From Escherichia phage nomo: a DNA stretch of 64,000 nt. The stretch lies in the sequence record MN850578.1; one strand, given 5' to 3'. Position numbers and translations under genes: made by a program. This document shows positions 4,237 through 62,890 of this stretch, piece after piece. Within the stretch, counting starts at the first letter, position 1. The number at the start of each line of letters is the position of its first letter. Under the pieces are notes generated by a model, which was given only the letters and a program-made list of their open reading frames with translations, made no database searches and had not been told where the DNA came from.

Positions 4237-4528
4237 AAACATTACCCCAGCAGGGTTCTTAAAAGTATACCGTGAACTGCTATATACTACAGAGGACAGT
4301 GTTCTAGAGTATCCAGAATATCTTTTGCTGTATAAGTATCTGCAGGAGGCTGGTGAAAATCTGCCAGTTAGTGCAGAAGGTGGTCCGAACTGGATATACA
4401 GCGCATGGAGAAAGGTTGACATTCTCCCAGATCCAGGTAAAGATATGGTAGTTTGGCAGCTTATCAACAACATTGGGATTCCAATCTTTGATGAAGCTGT
4501 TAAAATCTATTTTGAACTTGACGATTAA
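4226..4528 (+). CDS. hypothetical protein (100 aa)
   Basis: ORF with RBS aggag upstream of ATG 4226. Confidence 0.4.
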   Translation: MKTENITPAGFLKVYRELLYTTEDSVLEYPEYLLLYKYLQEAGENLPVSAEGGPNWIYSAWRKVDILPDPGKDMVVWQLINNIGIPIFDEAVKIYFELDD

Positions 4529-4545
4529 TATCAGGAGACCTTAAG

Positions 4546-4791
4546 ATGACTGAAGTAGTTGCTCGCGCAGGACAGAAAGTACGTTGTGTTGAAGTAGGTT
4601 TTGGTGGCAAAGGGTGTCAAAACTTGACTCAAGGTAAGGAATATGCTGTTATTTCTGGTGGTGGCGACGAAAGTATTGTGTTCGAGGGCCACATCCTGGA
4701 TGCTGAAAACTTTGAAATCTTTGACGACGATGGGGATCCAATCACCTGCCTGCTGGACGGGAATTGGGGAACTTTCGAAGTGATTGGCTAA
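4546..4791 (+). CDS. hypothetical protein (81 aa)
   Basis: ORF with RBS caggag upstream. Confidence 0.45.
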   Translation: MTEVVARAGQKVRCVEVGFGGKGCQNLTQGKEYAVISGGGDESIVFEGHILDAENFEIFDDDGDPITCLLDGNWGTFEVIG

Positions 4792-4874
4792 CAAATACCT
4801 ATTGTAATTTGCAGAAGGGGATGCTAAAATAGTGTCTCCTTCTATGTTGTTCAAATAAAATCGGAGATTCCATA

Positions 4875-5240
4875 ATGGAACAAATGAACGATCAAGCGTC
4901 GGTTGCGATGAACGAGCAAGAACAACCTCAAGAATTTTTCTTAGGGTTAAGTAAAGATCAAGTGTCTCTTCTGCTAGTGCTTTCTTCTTTCATGGGAAGA
5001 CTTCAGGAGCTCACACAACAACCAGAGGCTGAACAATTATTTCAAGCTCTGCGTGAAGAAGAAAAATATCGTCGTTTGGACTATGCCTTAGGTTGGGTAG
5101 CTCAACAACGAGATATGCTGATGGCCCTCTCTGGGACCACAAGTTTTGCAATGGGGCTGTTGGCTCAAGTTCAGGACAAATTAATTCAAGCAGGGTTTGC
5201 ACACACGGCAAACACTAACGAAGAACAAGGAGACAAATAA
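4875..5240 (+). CDS. hypothetical protein (121 aa)
   Basis: ORF with RBS ggag upstream; stop overlaps start of next gene (TAATG). Confidence 0.45.
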   Translation: MEQMNDQASVAMNEQEQPQEFFLGLSKDQVSLLLVLSSFMGRLQELTQQPEAEQLFQALREEEKYRRLDYALGWVAQQRDMLMALSGTTSFAMGLLAQVQDKLIQAGFAHTANTNEEQGDK

Positions 5241-6466
5241 TGAGCGTTATTCAACAATTCGCTAACCCGATGAATCCGCGTGAAACTGTTTTACTGGCTC
5301 ACGGCATGATTAAACGTGTCAGCATCAAGCCTATCAAAGGTGCTGATCCTACAACAGGTATTAAAACCACTGTGTGGCAAGGTAAGAAAATTGAATCCAG
5401 CCACACCATCTCTTTACTGATTTCTGAACTGGATTCCTCTGATAACCTGCTTCAAGGTGGTGAAGAAGTTTGGATCAGCATGGGTGATAAGCTGCTTAAA
5501 CCTGGTCATCAAGACTCTGTCTCTGTTAAAATTGATGACAAGTGGGAAACCGTAACGCCGGGATGGATCGTAAATATTCCTTTGAAGGCAAACGAGCATA
5601 ACGGTAAGACCTATTACAAAGGCTCACTGGCTAAGATGGTCAAGCTGGGTGCAGGAGAGGCTCCAGCAGCGACTCAGCAGCAAAAACAGCAACAAGGTGC
5701 ACAATCACAAGGCCAGAAGCAGAAACCTCAGCAGAATGCCAATCAGGACGTTTTACGCATCTATGGCGATGTGACTCAGATTGTTGGCAACGTGGTTACT
5801 GTTAATGACCACAAGATTGGCGAAGGTGCTATGGTTGTAACTGATGAGCAGCTTAAAGACCTGGTGGTAGGTGGTCGTGTTGCAGCCATTGTTGACAAAG
5901 ACACCGGAAACATTATCAGTGGTTTCAAAGCCTATCCCCCTAAGGCAGAGAACGGCACTCAAGGCTCCGGTGGCAAGCGTAAATCCTCTTACGACCCTAT
6001 CGGTGTGGAAACGGGGCATAGCATCAATGCGTTGCAGATCATCCTGGATCGCGGGTTTAAGGTAGACGACCCACTGGGCGTGGCTAAAACACTGCACGTA
6101 GTCACCATTGAGCTTAAGAAAGAGTATGCTCAAGCCACCAACCGAACTGAAGATGAAGTAGGTGCCAGTGTCGGTAATGCGGTGTTGAACGCTTGTCGCC
6201 GTATTGACAAGAAAACGAAAGTTGATGATTTTGCAGCGGCAATTACTGCAGAAGCAAAAGATGTCTTGACTAATCTGGCTGAACCGTTGTACGATTGGAT
6301 CAAGAACGGTGCTGGGTCAACTGACTATCAAGAACCCCAGGCTGCCAAACAGGAAGCAGCTCCACAGCAAAACACTGTAGACGCTCCTCCTGTAAATGAT
6401 GAGGAAGATGACCCAATGGATCAGAATCCAGCACAGTATACCTTTGATGATGACATCCCTTTTTAA
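5240..6466 (+). CDS. putative single-stranded DNA-binding protein with Gln-rich linker and acidic C-terminal tip DDDIPF
   Basis: Translation ends ...YTFDDDIPF, identical to the conserved C-terminal tip of bacterial SSB; central QQQKQQQGAQSQGQKQKPQQ low-complexity linker. Confidence 0.55.
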   Translation: MSVIQQFANPMNPRETVLLAHGMIKRVSIKPIKGADPTTGIKTTVWQGKKIESSHTISLLISELDSSDNLLQGGEEVWISMGDKLLKPGHQDSVSVKIDDKWETVTPGWIVNIPLKANEHNGKTYYKGSLAKMVKLGAGEAPAATQQQKQQQGAQSQGQKQKPQQNANQDVLRIYGDVTQIVGNVVTVNDHKIGEGAMVVTDEQLKDLVVGGRVAAIVDKDTGNIISGFKAYPPKAENGTQGSGGKRKSSYDPIGVETGHSINALQIILDRGFKVDDPLGVAKTLHVVTIELKKEYAQATNRTEDEVGASVGNAVLNACRRIDKKTKVDDFAAAITAEAKDVLTNLAEPLYDWIKNGAGSTDYQEPQAAKQEAAPQQNTVDAPPVNDEEDDPMDQNPAQYTFDDDIPF

Positions 6467-6481
6467 CATCTAGTTAACATA

Positions 6482-6509
6482 GCCCTGCCCGAAAGGGTGG
6501 GGCATTTTT
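6482..6509 (+). terminator. rho-independent terminator candidate
   Basis: GC stem with GAAA loop (gccctgcccgaaagggtggggc) followed by atttttg, just after SSB-like gene stop. Confidence 0.5.
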
Positions 6510-6528
6510 GTATAAGGAGATCTGAAAA

Positions 6529-6945
6529 ATGACATTAGAAGATATCATTGTTAAGCCTGAGAACTATGACCAATACAACCTGTCAACTCAATCTGTAGAC
6601 CTTGGATGCGCCACGGTCAGTGCGTGGCTGGTTAACGGAAAAGAGCTGGATAAATGCTTAGAAGCTCACATGTCTATTAACAAGTTTCTGGATGAAAATA
6701 CTCACTGGCTTGAGGGTGCAGGCGTATATGCTTCATGGTTGGATAGTATGGGATTCGACTACCAATCTGAAGAGGGGTGGTGGAGCTATTTAGCTATCTG
6801 TCCAGAGACGCTACAATGCTTCATGAAATATTCTGAAGATTTGGAGTACCGGGCGGTGGTTGATAGTGCTATTGCCCGTTATAGCCGTAAACCTTTTTCC
6901 CACGACATTAAAACTGTGGAAGAATTTGTTGAAGTTTTCTGTTGA
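6529..6945 (+). CDS. hypothetical protein (138 aa)
   Basis: ORF with RBS taaggag upstream. Confidence 0.5.
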   Translation: MTLEDIIVKPENYDQYNLSTQSVDLGCATVSAWLVNGKELDKCLEAHMSINKFLDENTHWLEGAGVYASWLDSMGFDYQSEEGWWSYLAICPETLQCFMKYSEDLEYRAVVDSAIARYSRKPFSHDIKTVEEFVEVFC

Positions 6946-20742: not shown

Positions 20743-21006
20743 ATGAAACGTCTTGACCAGCTCAAACTAGTTCAATATATGGCTTATCGTGTTCTGGAAG
20801 TCCAGAAAGGTAGCAAAAAAGAGGTTTGCGAGAAAGCTTATAAGATCTTTACCCGCAAAAAAGATGACTGGATGCTACGCCAGACCAAAAAGGCTGACAT
20901 CTTGGGGTACCTGGAAGAAGAGATCCGACTTGAAGAACAAGAAGAGATCCGCCGTAGTGAGGCAGATTATCAGGCAGCTTGGGAAAACTGGATGAGCAAC
21001 AAATAA
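20743..21006 (+). CDS. hypothetical protein (87 aa)
   Basis: 5' hairpin gggccaaaaggccc; RBS aaagagga. Confidence 0.5.
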   Translation: MKRLDQLKLVQYMAYRVLEVQKGSKKEVCEKAYKIFTRKKDDWMLRQTKKADILGYLEEEIRLEEQEEIRRSEADYQAAWENWMSNK

Positions 21007-21025
21007 TACAACAAGATGAACGGTC

Positions 21026-21050
21026 AGGGGCTTAAAGCCCCTTTCTTTTT
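21026..21050 (+). terminator. rho-independent terminator ending the + strand gene block
   Basis: Hairpin aggggcttaaagcccct followed by ttcttttt. Confidence 0.65.
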
Positions 21051-21059
21051 GTCTTCTCT

Positions 21060-23500
21060 TTTCCTACCATAAACGGCCCTACCTGGCAAGTGGAATAATT
21101 GACGAGCCATCAATCCCACACACTGTACAAATATACATGGAAAATAACTATTGCATAATTTTTCATTGTGTGGTAGCAAGGCCATTTTTACACGTTTTTC
21201 CTTCCAAAATTGCACGTAATGCAGCATTTGCACAAAATTTAACCTGATGCATATCTTCAATAGCTTGTCAACAACTAAAAATCTTTATAAGTCATACACT
21301 TACATAACTACAAAAACGTTTTCTACGTGAAAAATCGAGTATAACTATAGCCGCCAGATCTCAGAATTTACGTACGCTCGCCATTCTATAGCCTGCTAAG
21401 CATTTATTCCAACCATAGAATAACTGAATAGTCAATACCTGCATAAAATAATTATTCGTGTAAACTGCATAACATAAATCGGCCCAGGTGTCAACATTTT
21501 TCGTAAACAGTCTGGAATTGTCACGTTAGGTTACCATAAGTAGAGAAATCTTTAGTCGTCTAATGTTTACTGTACGTTACTATATTAACTGAAATCATTA
21601 GATGACTAATAGAAAGATAAGAAATAATTAACAATACAATTATTTTATCTGTAACAATAAGGCAACTATGCAAACGAATGGCATGGCGCGACGGAGTCGC
21701 GACATAATATAAAAGCAGTAACCATCACCCCCGTGATAGTTTGTCTGCAAACTATTAATCAGATCATAGTTGCCTTGTATTTAGTTAATCATGACATAAC
21801 AAGCAAGGCAACTATAGATCTGCTAATAGTTGCCCTGCTTTTATATTATGTCATGCTAATTATAATCAGTGCGATTATTGTCATGTATAATTATTGTCAT
21901 GCAAACGAATGGCATGGCTGATTATCGGTGTGTAAACAGTCAATCATGTAAATGGTTAGCATGTGAACAATCAGGAATGTAAACAATCCAGTGTGTAAAC
22001 TAATAGGTGTGTAAAAGTGTCATGTTGTGTCAGTTAGGTCACATTATGTCAGACAAGTTTTTCTCCTCTTTGTCAAGTGCTGCATGAAAAATTTACAAGC
22101 TTGTATGGTAGCATTTTTGCGGCCCTGTTTACATTCAGGAGTGTATGTATAATCCTTGTTGTGTGGGCGTTTAGACGTCTGGACGGTCAGAAGTCTGCAG
22201 GTCAATATCTAATCTATTGGCTGCTAACTATATCCCCCACAAATAATAAGAAATATAATTGTTATGTGCGTAAACAGTAACCCATGTTATCAATCCCTGT
22301 ATGTATCGCCAGTTGTGCGCATAATGGGTATTATGTTAAATTGCCCGTAATGATAACTATTCTCACAATGATAGGTATTCTCATTCACCCCCACAAGATA
22401 GGTTGCAAATGTTGTGCCACTGTGTGAACGGCCTCACCTATTAATTTGCCTCACTGCCTCGATATTTGAGAATTGTTATAAGAATGAGAAGTATTCCCAT
22501 TCCGTCCGCCTGGCAGCACTCCAGTCGCTACGGCTCCTGACAGGGCAGCACTCCTGTAGGTCAGGTCAAAATCGTGGTAGAACTGGACCTGTTCGGATAT
22601 TTCTGGCTGACTCTTCAGGTCTGTGTGGGAAAAGCCAACCCCTCCGGCGGGGCAGGGGATATCTGCAGGAAAATTGCAGGTCAATTAAAAATTTACGTGG
22701 TGTATGAAGCGCTCTTCAGGCAAGGCATGTATTAGAGGATGAAACCCTCTTCAGGCAATGATATTTGTGGGTGGGATATTTGCTGGAAAGCCAGATATGA
22801 CGGGACTCCCGGCGGGGCAGGGGTAGTACAGACAGGGAAAATATGAGGATGTAATTGGGGAAATTGATCAGACAGGTAGAGTATGGAATATGTTACAGGT
22901 ATGTTAAATATGGAGGTTGAATATCTGTAGGATTTGTGTGTAAAATCAAAGACTTAAGGGGTGTTGTGGTATTTTCTATAAATAATTCAAGTTTAATAGG
23001 CAATATTTGTCTCTATCCGCTTTGTGTGGTAAACAGATTCAGATGAAATTGGTTTACAAGTGTATACATAATATACAAATTAAAGATACAAGAAACCCCC
23101 CTCCCCCCTCGGCTACCATTCACCTTTTCCTCTGACTGGTACTTAAACACTTATTCAGACTCTTCAGGTTATCACCCATATATCATATGGCAGTGACTGG
23201 TGTCCTCCGGCCCCTCTTTCGTCACCCGTCCGCTTCGCCATGCTAATGCCATAGCCAATGGTTCGGTTGTTCACCCTGTTCACTCAGGTGTATCTCCATA
23301 CCCCTTCAAACCGAAGAGAACAGAAAACCCGAATTACTCGGTAAAAGAAAAGAGAAGAACTTAATTTTATCAGGATAGGCAAGAATGTCAAGGCATGACT
23401 GCTCACTAAACAAGCAAACAGTCATGTGTGGAAGGTAAGTGATTGTGGTGGTGGGAAATTTAGTTGAAAGATGTGTTATAGGTGCGCTTCCAGCACTTTA
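21060..23500. other. 2.5-kb non-coding convergence region with several repeat families
   Basis: No convincing ORF; repeats gcaaacgaatggcatggc (x2), tgtgtaaac-like array 21928-22016, ctcttcagg...ccggcggggcagggg units 22606-22840. Confidence 0.55.
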
Positions 23501-23520
23501 GCCTGGCAGCTAATTGTGTG

Positions 23521-23736
23521 TCAGTCCAGCGGTTCATCCTCTACTTCACTGAAATCAATGTTCATGGTCTCTTCCCAACCATCGATCTCAGCACAAGAGT
23601 GGAGTTCTTTAGGGTTTACTCCCAAAGCCTCAGCAACAGAGTCTATATTTAACACCTCTGGTAGGTATGATTCATCGAATTCAAGGTAAATCAGGCCACG
23701 AGTGTTGTCAGCCCCACCAAATATTTCTATCTTCAT
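23521..23736 (-). CDS. hypothetical small acidic protein (71 aa), MKIEI-type N-terminus
   Basis: ORF with RBS; first gene of leftward block. Confidence 0.4.
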   Translation of the reverse strand: MKIEIFGGADNTRGLIYLEFDESYLPEVLNIDSVAEALGVNPKELHSCAEIDGWEETMNIDFSEVEDEPLD

Positions 23737-23857
23737 GAAATCTCCTCTGGAAATGAGAGTGTGAACAGGGTTTTATACGTTCCAATGCACAAGAATTATA
23801 CACGTTTGCCTCTTCAGGCCATGCTTTAGCATGAGGAACCTGTGTGGGCTCGGTGCT

Positions 23858-24073
23858 TCATAGTCTACCACCTCTGAACTCTTCGTGCTCAGGCATAATA
23901 GAGAACCAGATATCTACGATGTCTCCCCACGTCAGGTCATCAGCCTCAGGATCTATCTGGGACGAAGATGAAGAGTCATCAGAATCTAAGTTTTCCTCTT
24001 TCACTGGCTCAGCCAATGGACAACATATGGTCACTCCTTCAGATGTCTCTTCAGATGCATGCGTGTTGATCAT
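23858..24073 (-). CDS. hypothetical acidic protein (71 aa); start uncertain
   Basis: ORF downstream of - strand consensus promoter (ttgaca...tagtat near 24215-24245). Confidence 0.3.
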   Translation of the reverse strand: MINTHASEETSEGVTICCPLAEPVKEENLDSDDSSSSSQIDPEADDLTWGDIVDIWFSIMPEHEEFRGGRL

Positions 24074-25129: not shown

Positions 25130-25435
25130 TTATTCTACAGAGCGTTTGAACAGAATGTCTGCCTCGGACATGTGCTCAACCTCTTCTTCGATTTTAGCTC
25201 GACGTTTTTCAGCCTCATAGCGAATATCGAACTCGGTAGCCACCAGAGATTTGATGAATTTAGGAGAATACAGGTGATCCTGCTTCTCAACGAGAATGAT
25301 ATCCTTAATGGCATCTTTCAGATCTTTAATCTGAAGTTGGAGTTCCACCAGTTCTTCGATTGTCTTGCGAAGGCGATCACGCTCTGCAGTGTCAGAAGGA
25401 AGAGAGGTGAACAGTTCAACTTTAGATTTAGCCAT
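25130..25435 (-). CDS. hypothetical protein (101 aa)
   Basis: ORF with RBS; charged, helical-looking translation. Confidence 0.45.
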   Translation of the reverse strand: MAKSKVELFTSLPSDTAERDRLRKTIEELVELQLQIKDLKDAIKDIILVEKQDHLYSPKFIKSLVATEFDIRYEAEKRRAKIEEEVEHMSEADILFKRSVE

Positions 25436-62699: not shown

Positions 62700-62890
62700 T
62701 GGAACGGATACTATTAACTGTCCGTCACGCGGACACATCTGCCCGTAATACGGACACTAACTGTCCGTGATACGGACACATAAAGAATATAACTAAAATA
62801 ACTAAATAATAAAAAATAAAAGATCTAGTACTTATGGTACTAAGTACATATACTTAACTTATGTAGAATATACTAGATCCTAAGTACCAT
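62700..62890. repeat. palindrome cluster: GTCCGT/ACGGAC dyads (e.g. tgtccgtgatacggaca), AT-rich spacer, and long dyad around agatctagtact...agtactagatc
   Basis: Inverted repeats read directly; intergenic. Confidence 0.55.

Follow-up and report, generated by a model that had tools for sequence, protein, structure and literature searches.

What does a phage chromosome do with 2.5 kb of DNA that carries no gene? The question is raised by Escherichia phage nomo (sequence record MN850578.1), in which a rightward and a leftward block of genes converge on a gap of 2,514 bp, lying between coding sequences that end at 21006 (+ strand) and 23521 (- strand). In what follows the window is the whole 64-kb stretch of MN850578.1 that was analyzed and the zone is the gene-free interval 21007-23520 within it. 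An initial annotation of the window had described a gene-free convergence zone of about 2.5 kb, and the borders just given agree with that description. Our analysis indicates that the zone is most probably the DNA-maturation (concatemer-junction) region of the chromosome, with positions 22052-22510 constituting a 459-bp terminal repeat at both chromosome ends. The core of this finding is already known, since the sister phages HdK5, EdH4 and Gotham have been reported with the repeat; to our knowledge, what has gone undescribed so far is the position of the repeat inside the "non-coding" box of phage rV5, an architecture that extends across genera, and an invariant block bearing a promoter, and all of these are incremental.

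The 459-bp repeat and its boundaries

Positions 21000-23600 match 121 phage records at 88-97% identity over nearly their full length, nearly all of them Vequintavirus and with phage MaxBurger (97.4% identity) at the top, and the window itself belongs to this genus of rV5-like E. coli myoviruses, whose genomes are of ∼137 kb. The zone is the same locus as the grey "non-coding" box of the rV5 genome paper (Kropinski et al. 2013), placed between the converging genes 163 and 164 and stated to have "contained no ORFs" (open reading frames; PMC3606486). The passages of that paper that deal with the box give it no function and note that bidirectional terminators between genes 163 and 164 were expected and not found; no promoters or terminators are listed inside it (Table S4), the promoter table being empty here because only the regions upstream of genes were scanned (PMC3606486).

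The evidence for a terminal repeat comes from the ends of related records. The HdK5 record opens and closes with the same 459 bp (100% identity), equivalent to window positions 22510..22052, the HdK5 repeat being 97.8% identical to window 22052-22510 and those of HdK5, EdH4 and Gotham 97-98%. The repeat is found at both ends of five records, HdK5, EdH4, Gotham (annotated repeat_region 1-459), ECP2309 and YN3, and at one end of Pr121LW and ECP2303, whose record end equals 22052, and the records of bov11CS3 and bov25_3 start at a boundary equal to 22510; exactly the same two end positions are common to these nine GenBank records. Two publications bear on the point in the passages that concern genome ends. 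Korf et al. (2019) describe "short terminal redundancies of 458 bp" in EdH4 and HdK5 (PMC6563267), and Dias et al. (2020) support a defined terminal repeat and fixed ends in Gotham (PMC7471380), the two papers together giving a repeat of 458/459 bp and a single fixed packaging start. The same passages are silent on the location of the repeat inside the rV5 box, on the flanking arrays, on the inverted repeat and on the invariant block discussed below (PMC6563267, PMC7471380). For nomo, a short direct terminal repeat with the same sequence at both ends is supported by homology to these relatives, in which it is directly seen. Because they carry the 459-bp repeat at both ends, the window is a permuted assembly that has merged both copies into one, and of the options left by the initial annotation it is that of genome ends or a packaging site in a permuted assembly to which the record ends of the relatives lead.

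A second line of evidence is provided by the pattern of conservation, for which the zone was aligned with 15 relatives (a 16-genome alignment). The terminal repeat shows 94% pairwise identity, as against 72% in the 190 bp directly to its left, and invariance begins at TGTCA/GACAAG (the slash marks the boundary), no more than 5 nt from 22052 and right after a hypervariable array. A second indel hotspot starts ∼15 nt past 22510, and the right boundary, ...CCGTCCGCC/TGGCAGC, is conserved within the genus. At the level of sequence, then, the repeat ends at conserved and specific motifs, the left one across genera and the right one within the genus only. The comparison with related phages that had been suggested initially places the genome ends in the zone on two counts, through the record ends and through this break in conservation.

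The left boundary can be followed into other genera. In Klebsiella phage KPP-1 (Mydovirus) the terminal repeat measures 514 bp and was called T7-type by PhageTerm (PMC9862379). Its repeat sits in a syntenic convergence zone which, once reverse-complemented, is collinear with the zone of nomo, and its boundary shares an alignment column with 22052, the consensus there being TGYYA/RACA; the KP12 record begins at one KPP-1 repeat boundary, not the one aligned to 22052. The KPP-1 zone is in turn 70-77% identical in Seunavirus phages (PVP-SE1, 4MG, GAP31 and others). Nucleotide searches with the zone of nomo gave no relatives outside Vequintavirus, the other genera being reached only by chaining through the KPP-1 zone, and conservation across genera was scored as a z value against shuffled controls in six phages of other genera. 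Within the terminal repeat it is strongest at block B (Table 1), where the cross-genus pattern reads GTGCGCATAA.G.GTATTATGTTAAAT. Block B resembles the late-promoter motif proposed for rV5 (P030, GTGTTAAAATAG) and is possibly a late-type promoter or a protein-binding site, judging from this resemblance. A likeness between the right boundaries of the genera (TCCGTC...T.GCA.CAC) was suggestive by eye and failed to beat shuffled controls. Units of the type AATGAKAA..ATTCYCA occur at 22349-22383 and 22483-22499 and also in and beside the KPP-1 repeat (L008:4214-4267, 4740-4960); they may be a shared protein-binding motif, the similarity being only marginally above that of shuffled controls.

The assignment has practical consequences. 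Most of the ∼120 Vequintavirus records in GenBank are linearized at arbitrary points, with the zone either blank or filled with spurious mini-ORFs. Taking 22052-22510 as the repeat gives the true start, end and length of the genome, the last of these 459 bp above that of the collapsed assembly, and true ends matter for Vequintaviruses used in therapy or biocontrol and for their engineering.

Candidate maturation sites around the repeat

If 22052-22510 is the terminal repeat of nomo, replicating genomes would be joined head to tail through it, with one copy per junction, and the terminase would cut at two fixed sequences, TGTCA/GACAAG (left) and ...CCGTCCGCC/TGGCAGC (right). The gene for the large terminase subunit falls outside the 64-kb window, as estimated from the correspondence of window and rV5 coordinates. 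The repeat would be duplicated such that each virion receives two copies, as in phages of the T7 type, and virion DNA of this phage would begin GACAAGTTTTTC... and end ...CCGTCCGCC. Because the layout is the same as that of T7, the segment 21640-22700 can be read as a set of cis-acting sites that would serve in terminase recognition, cutting and duplication of the repeat, the arrays and the long-range inverted repeat being candidate sites for recognition, for cutting and for duplication by fold-back or strand displacement. The features concerned, along with others of the zone and its borders, are collected in Table 1.

Table 1. Features of the zone and its borders in window coordinates; z values are relative to shuffled controls
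Feature	Position	Strand	Remarks
Last gene of rightward block	20743-21006	+	87-amino-acid product
Intrinsic terminator closing rightward block	21026-21050	+	7-bp stem with 5 G-C pairs, then T run
A+T-rich non-coding stretch	21060-21640		G+C 0.32-0.38; 92% mean pairwise identity, 15 genomes
Inverted-repeat cluster	21668-21918		Bracketed by identical 20-bp direct repeats ATGCAAACGAATGGCATGGC
18-nt perfect inverted repeat	arms 21701-21718, 21835-21852		Arms 116 nt apart, 200 nt left of terminal repeat
Short-repeat array abutting left boundary	21928-22051	+	TGTAAAC-type units, then TGTCA units
Direct terminal repeat, 459 bp (probable)	22052-22510		At both chromosome ends; single copy in this permuted assembly
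Left-end segment ACAAGTTTTTCTCCTCTTTGTCAAG...AAATTTACAA	22053-22099		Conserved across genera, z 6.3-7.6 in 4/6 phages
Block B, GTGCGCATAATGGGTATTATGTTAAAT	22314-22343	+	30 nt; z 7.9-10.5 in 6/6 phages of other genera
Indel-rich region	22512-22700	+	89% pairwise identity; large indels ∼22525-22560 and 22640-22690
First G-box, CCGGCGGGGCAGGGG	22644-22658	+	Identical copy at 22809
Second G-box	22809-22823	+	In 22712-22823 with CTCTTCAGG copies at 22712 and 22747
Nearly invariant 355-bp non-coding block	23086-23440	-	Vequintavirus only
G6AG6 tract, then TTTCTT	23085-23110	-	Far end of invariant block
Near-consensus sigma-70 promoter	23364-23391	-	TTGACA-16 nt-TGATAAAAT; 11/12 hexamer positions, extended -10
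8-bp inverted repeat CATGACTG-N17-CAGTCATG	23396-23428		Directly upstream of promoter
First gene of leftward block	23521-23736	-	71 amino acids; PHROG 12108, E-value 1.9e-52

To the left of the repeat the segment 21640-21860 is well preserved (97% pairwise identity, 88% invariant columns). The repeats that had been noted here at the outset are real: the two copies of the 20-mer ATGCAAACGAATGGCATGGC, at 21668-21687 and 21899-21918, are 100% identical, and the inverted ggcaactat/atagttgcc repeats correspond to four GGCAACTAT sites (21661, 21766, 21807, 21826) that form two inverted pairs within 21661-21834. GGCAACTAT is present 5 times in the window as against 0.49 expected, a count reached by 0 of 100 shuffles. 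A small hairpin, GCGCGAC-GGA-GTCGCG, lies in the same cluster.

The 18-nt inverted repeat of Table 1 has a counterpart in each genus examined (Vequintavirus, Mydovirus, Seunavirus), with arms of 15-20 nt, a spacer of 115-217 nt and a position 200-310 nt left of the terminal repeat. Its arm reads GACATAATATAAAAGCAG in Vequintavirus, GACACAATAACACGGGAG in KPP-1, GACACTATAACACGAGAG in PVP-SE1 and ...CGAGGG in 4MG, and despite these differences the arms remain perfectly complementary, both having changed together. Since complementarity is kept though the sequences differ, the inverted repeat is a candidate for selection on pairing, whereby single-stranded DNA or RNA would form a fold-back or cruciform, or for a pair of matched protein-binding sites. 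A mobile element with target duplication, made up of the 20-bp direct and the 18-bp inverted repeats, was considered and rejected, as the direct repeats are 13 and 46 nt from the arms and the inverted repeat is syntenic and co-varies across genera.

The array that abuts the left boundary is composed of TGTAAAC-type units with a 15-16-nt period (∼21928-22016) followed by TGTCA units with a 9-10-nt period, the last of which ends at 22051. The initial annotation had described a tgtgtaaac-like array at 21928-22016, and it is indeed present, clustered and periodic; over the whole window, enrichment is weak, with 26 matches to TGTGTAAAC at ≤1 mismatch and 19.7 expected, and it is the clustering and the periodicity that stand out. 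Among those relatives in which the array is cleanly delimited it measures 107-220 nt and holds 1-12 TGTAAAC-type units, with 72% pairwise identity and many indels.

To the right of the repeat, GGCAGCACTCC is found twice in the indel-rich region, at 22512 and 22544, and GGCTGACTCTTCAGGTC (22605-22621) is identical at 17/17 positions in GAP31 and EC152 and at 16/17 in KPP-1. The ctcttcagg units of the initial annotation are borne out by CTCTTCAGG, whose copies at 22611, 22712, 22747, 23160 and 23810 are all on the + strand; there are 6 in the window where 0.6 are expected, and none of 100 shuffles reaches 6. The G-rich unit said to be repeated is likewise found twice, as CCGGCGGGGCAGGGG at 22644 and 22809, and the G-box pattern CTCC[CG]GGCGGGG[CG]AGGGG is conserved in Seunavirus phages (z ∼4-5). 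A scan of viral contigs with the 15-mer G-box returned mostly unrelated G+C-rich contigs and was uninformative. When flanking arrays of the T7 kind are looked for, TGTAAAC and TGTCA units are found on the left of the repeat and GGCAGCACTCC and CTCTTCAGG units on the right.

Farther to the right, an A+T-rich stretch of ∼80 bp (23012-23090) separates the region that is G-rich on the + strand from the invariant block. Strand composition flips at this stretch, which may be the true meeting point of transcription from both sides, and in A135 and MiataMamis it is swapped for unrelated sequence.

Taken together, the cut-site motif, the arrays, the co-changing inverted repeat and block B form a cross-genus set of candidate cis elements that opens the maturation of short terminal repeats in a large myovirus to direct testing.

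Other readings and the invariant block

The 355-bp block at 23086-23440, which has a promoter and no gene, is the one real loose end. Its pairwise identity is 98.4%, with 92% invariant columns, compared with 95.6% for the adjoining coding sequence, and it is ≥97% identical in 117/117 GenBank records that cover ≥80% of it. A virome scan gave 2 loci and a metagenome scan 30, of which 6 were true copies, the copies being 95.5-99.4% identical. No counterpart was found in the other genera that share the rest of the zone, and E. coli genomes gave no match to the block, which is therefore not a copy of host DNA. The promoter, of the same type as those listed for rV5 (P074, for example), faces left, toward the terminal repeat, and no gene follows it. 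Virome contig L074 has the most divergent copy of the block, and there both hexamers are kept and the spacer is changed in sequence and length. The G6AG6 tract at the other end is the sole G5NG5 tract in the window (1 match, with 0 in 100 shuffles), and its length varies among relatives. Such features would be compatible with an origin, a regulatory region or a gene for a small RNA.

That the zone, or a part of it, is a replication origin is a possibility that we consider rather unlikely; it is compatible with genome ends in the same place. Two versions may be envisaged. The first is an iteron-type origin made up of the A+T-rich 21100-21650, the four GGCAACTAT sites and the TGTAAAC array, in keeping with the fact that clustered inverted sites adjoin A+T-rich DNA. 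The second is primed by transcription from the promoter 23391-23364, with an RNA that would end at G6AG6-TTT as a persistent priming hybrid, and here one may cite the conserved hexamers of a promoter that lacks a gene, the nearly invariant 260 nt that follow and the single G6AG6 tract with its T's, which has the form of mitochondrial CSB2. The cumulative GC skew, too, turns at ∼23000. As against this, the rV5 authors found, in the passage on skew, that its turns are changes in the direction of transcription and that no origin could be defined (PMC3606486), and scans for DnaA boxes, IHF sites and Chi found no origin-like cluster, the two relaxed DnaA matches being TGTGTAAAA units on the other strand. 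The block is moreover missing from genera that share the rest of the zone, which one would not expect of an essential origin, G6AG6 gives basal termination only in the mitochondrial system, and no initiator protein is linked to the repeats.

A more specific form of the second version, in which the block acts as a transcription-primed origin or as another R-loop or G-quadruplex device of the CSB2 kind, we regard as improbable. Host RNA polymerase would start at 23391-23364, copy ∼260 nt of constrained sequence and stall or terminate at G6AG6-TTT by way of an RNA:DNA hybrid G-quadruplex, leaving a primer at a distance of ∼600 bp from the left chromosome end. In human mitochondria, a hybrid G-quadruplex at CSB2 (GmAGn, then a T tract) ends transcription and makes the replication primer (PMC3488243, PMC5027508). 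The two are alike in that G6AG6 followed by TTT lies downstream of a promoter with the G-rich strand as non-template, and unlike in the enzyme, a mitochondrial polymerase there and E. coli RNA polymerase here, the likeness being one of form only. Were it true, a phage would carry a CSB2-like element for priming, with a multi-subunit bacterial polymerase as the enzyme that reads it.

At about the same low level of probability as an origin in general we place the proposal of one or more non-coding RNA genes in the zone. First among the candidates would be an RNA of ∼260 nt on the - strand, running from 23357 to ∼23090 under the promoter 23391-23364, and a second would be read on the + strand from inside the terminal repeat through the G-rich CTCTTCAGG region. 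The conserved promoter and the invariance downstream of it speak for such an RNA, as does a composition like that of transcribed DNA, with an excess of G over C on the + strand between 22600 and 23000 and on the - strand between 23100 and 23300, and a terminator-like hairpin lies at 22653-22638 on the - strand. Against it, Rfam 15 gave no match at gathering thresholds over the whole window nor at E-value ≤5 over 20900-23900, and the predicted fold of 23080-23357 is no more stable than shuffled sequence (z of -0.9 on the - strand and -0.14 on the + strand). In a consensus fold of 15 block copies 0/115 predicted base pairs show a compensatory change, there being no covariation to see because the copies barely vary. 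A scan for tRNAs found none.

Several points have to be set against the preferred reading, that of a maturation region with a fixed terminal repeat. The ends of nomo are assigned by homology to the HdK5 repeat, the identity being the 97.8% given above. The right boundary is not significantly conserved across genera (z ≤2.7 relative to shuffles). Co-evolving protein-binding sites, or gene conversion between the arms, could equally keep the arms of the inverted repeat matched. The cut sites and the repeat rest on the evidence already described, whereas the roles of the arrays and of the inverted repeat are proposed by analogy. Finally, two reports based on PhageTerm do not agree with fixed ends, one listing the bov phages as 'circular permutated' (PMC8407724) and the other calling the Vequintavirus BpE1AUH headful, pac-type (PMC13211470).

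These two reports favor headful packaging from a pac site in the zone, in which case the 459-bp 'repeat' would be an assembly artefact or a copied convention. We give them less weight because nine records share both end positions exactly, whereas headful packaging would be expected to produce scattered ends, and because two groups reported the repeat independently (PMC6563267, PMC7471380), one of which, in its passage on termini, set genomes with a defined repeat (Gotham) apart from permuted ones without 2-fold coverage (PMC7471380). They are weighted less, too, because the independently determined KPP-1 boundary, in another genus, falls in the same alignment column, because the conservation break sits at the boundary, and because the revised record MT884009.2 starts at the equivalent of 22510. 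Packaging by the headful mechanism is, on this balance, very improbable. Transposase-based sequencing libraries often conceal fixed ends from PhageTerm. For bov11CS3 (MT884009.2) and bov25_3 (MT884011.2) the length in the paper is 135,960 bp and that of the version-2 records, which start exactly at the 22510 equivalent, is 135,883 bp.

There remains the matter of protein-coding genes. In line with the early impression that the zone has no credible ORFs, no conserved ORF was found among 13 zone ORFs, all of ≥39 amino acids, that were translated across the 15 relatives, 12 of them being broken by stop codons or frameshifts in at least one relative. The sole unbroken one, 23164-23283, is open only because the block is nearly invariant, and all of its changes are non-synonymous; the ORFs of the block in general either vary only non-synonymously or are interrupted in at least one relative. 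ORFs 22414-22707 and 22451-22684 span the indel-rich region and in most relatives show frameshifts or interruptions; 21024-21260 (-), the sole long ORF of 21060-21640, has stop codons in most relatives. A conserved protein gene, which was named at the outset as the result that would overturn a non-coding reading, did not emerge by homology in the 15 relatives, and although small ORFs are annotated in several records (FFH2 ORF150, Murica gp129, 15 coding sequences in MiataMamis) they vary from record to record, making a hidden protein gene or set of mini-genes the least credible reading of all.

The genes at the borders of the zone are small. The ORF 23521-23736 is intact in every relative covering it and lies outside the aligned part of virome contig L074. 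The terminator at 21026-21050 is annotated in the Alma, HdK5, Gotham and Murica records and equals t164 in rV5. The G+C content drops to 0.32-0.38 across 21100-22000. The small flanking proteins have no Pfam domain and belong to PHROG families without known function, with the exception of a putative transcriptional regulator at 25130-25435. In several records the 20743-21006 product is named 'DNA translocase FtsK'; since the protein lacks a Pfam domain and falls in a PHROG without known function, the name looks like an annotation copied from another record. Many of the relatives fetched (rV5 ORF164, Murica gp128, FFH2 ORF151 and others) have an extra 139-amino-acid gene between the 87-amino-acid gene and the zone, said in one record to contain a 'Rel homology domain' and absent from the window, Alma, pangalan, HdK5 and Gotham.

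Some further observations concern the records and the window at large. Nineteen 'Campylobacter phage' records (MG0656xx) are Vequintavirus genomes, 87-94% identical to the zone, and are probably mislabelled or contaminating coliphages; the one fetched, MG065690.1, is marked UNVERIFIED and carries no annotation. The whole zone is also matched, at 91.7% identity (4496-6927), by PLSDB entry CP057073.1, which is filed as an 'E. coli plasmid' of 137,565 bp obtained from pooled cattle faeces and is evidently a Vequintavirus genome. GATC occurs at 354 sites in the window (∼5.5 per kb) and at 4 in the zone, compared with ∼14 expected from the window average, which makes it ∼3.5-fold rarer there. At 62715-62779 a tandem repeat of 3 copies of a partly palindromic 22-nt unit, TAACTGTCCGTAATACGGACAC, adjoins the switch in gene orientation and GC skew at ∼61 kb and may be an operator array at divergent promoters.

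Comparison with related genera and with T7

The nearest systems for comparison are the zones of KPP-1 and the Seunavirus phages. As in nomo, gene blocks converge, the last gene is of 264 nt and is followed by a terminator, and the zone comes next; in Seunavirus, between a last gene of 264-267 nt and the leftward block, there are 1.75-2.3 kb poor in genes. A last gene of this length is at the equivalent position in Mydo, EspYZU15, EC152 and GAP31, and the terminator after it is annotated in PVP-SE1 and Mydo, with a matching terminator-like hairpin in the other aligned sequences. Homology also extends to the left-end segment, block B, the G-box, the CTTCAGG motif and the long-range inverted repeat. 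The differences are that these zones are shorter (1.75-2.3 kb), lacking 23086-23440 and most of 22620-23520, and that their right boundaries are not clearly homologous. The initial annotation had called the size and repeat density of the zone unusual for a compact phage genome, a view that calls for correction, as the genome is of ∼137 kb and at least three genera of the subfamily have this gene-poor zone, 1.75-2.3 kb long, in a syntenic position.

T7 offers the better-known case. In T7 models the repeat is duplicated before cutting, by way of nicking, strand displacement and a hairpin intermediate (PMC4281155), and a pause of transcription at the junction assists the initiation of packaging (PMC3276506). 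When we checked the T7 sequence, 7-nt units of the CCTAAAG type were found with a 13-nt period at nt 175-341, together with a matching array left of the right-hand repeat, such that each copy of the 160-bp repeat is directly adjoined by an array, and the host promoter A0 is directed toward the left end. There is no sequence similarity between the two phages, nomo being a myovirus of ∼137 kb with host-type promoters and T7 a podovirus with its own RNA polymerase; in nomo the genes on both sides point toward the ends and not inward, and the repeat is 3 times longer. What they have in common is the layout: a short repeat whose ends are fixed, abutting arrays of 7-nt units with a period of ∼13-16 nt, and a host-type promoter directed toward an end. 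In nomo the arrays lie on both sides of the repeat, the inverted repeat is on the side of the right end, and the promoter at 23391-23364 is directed toward the left end.

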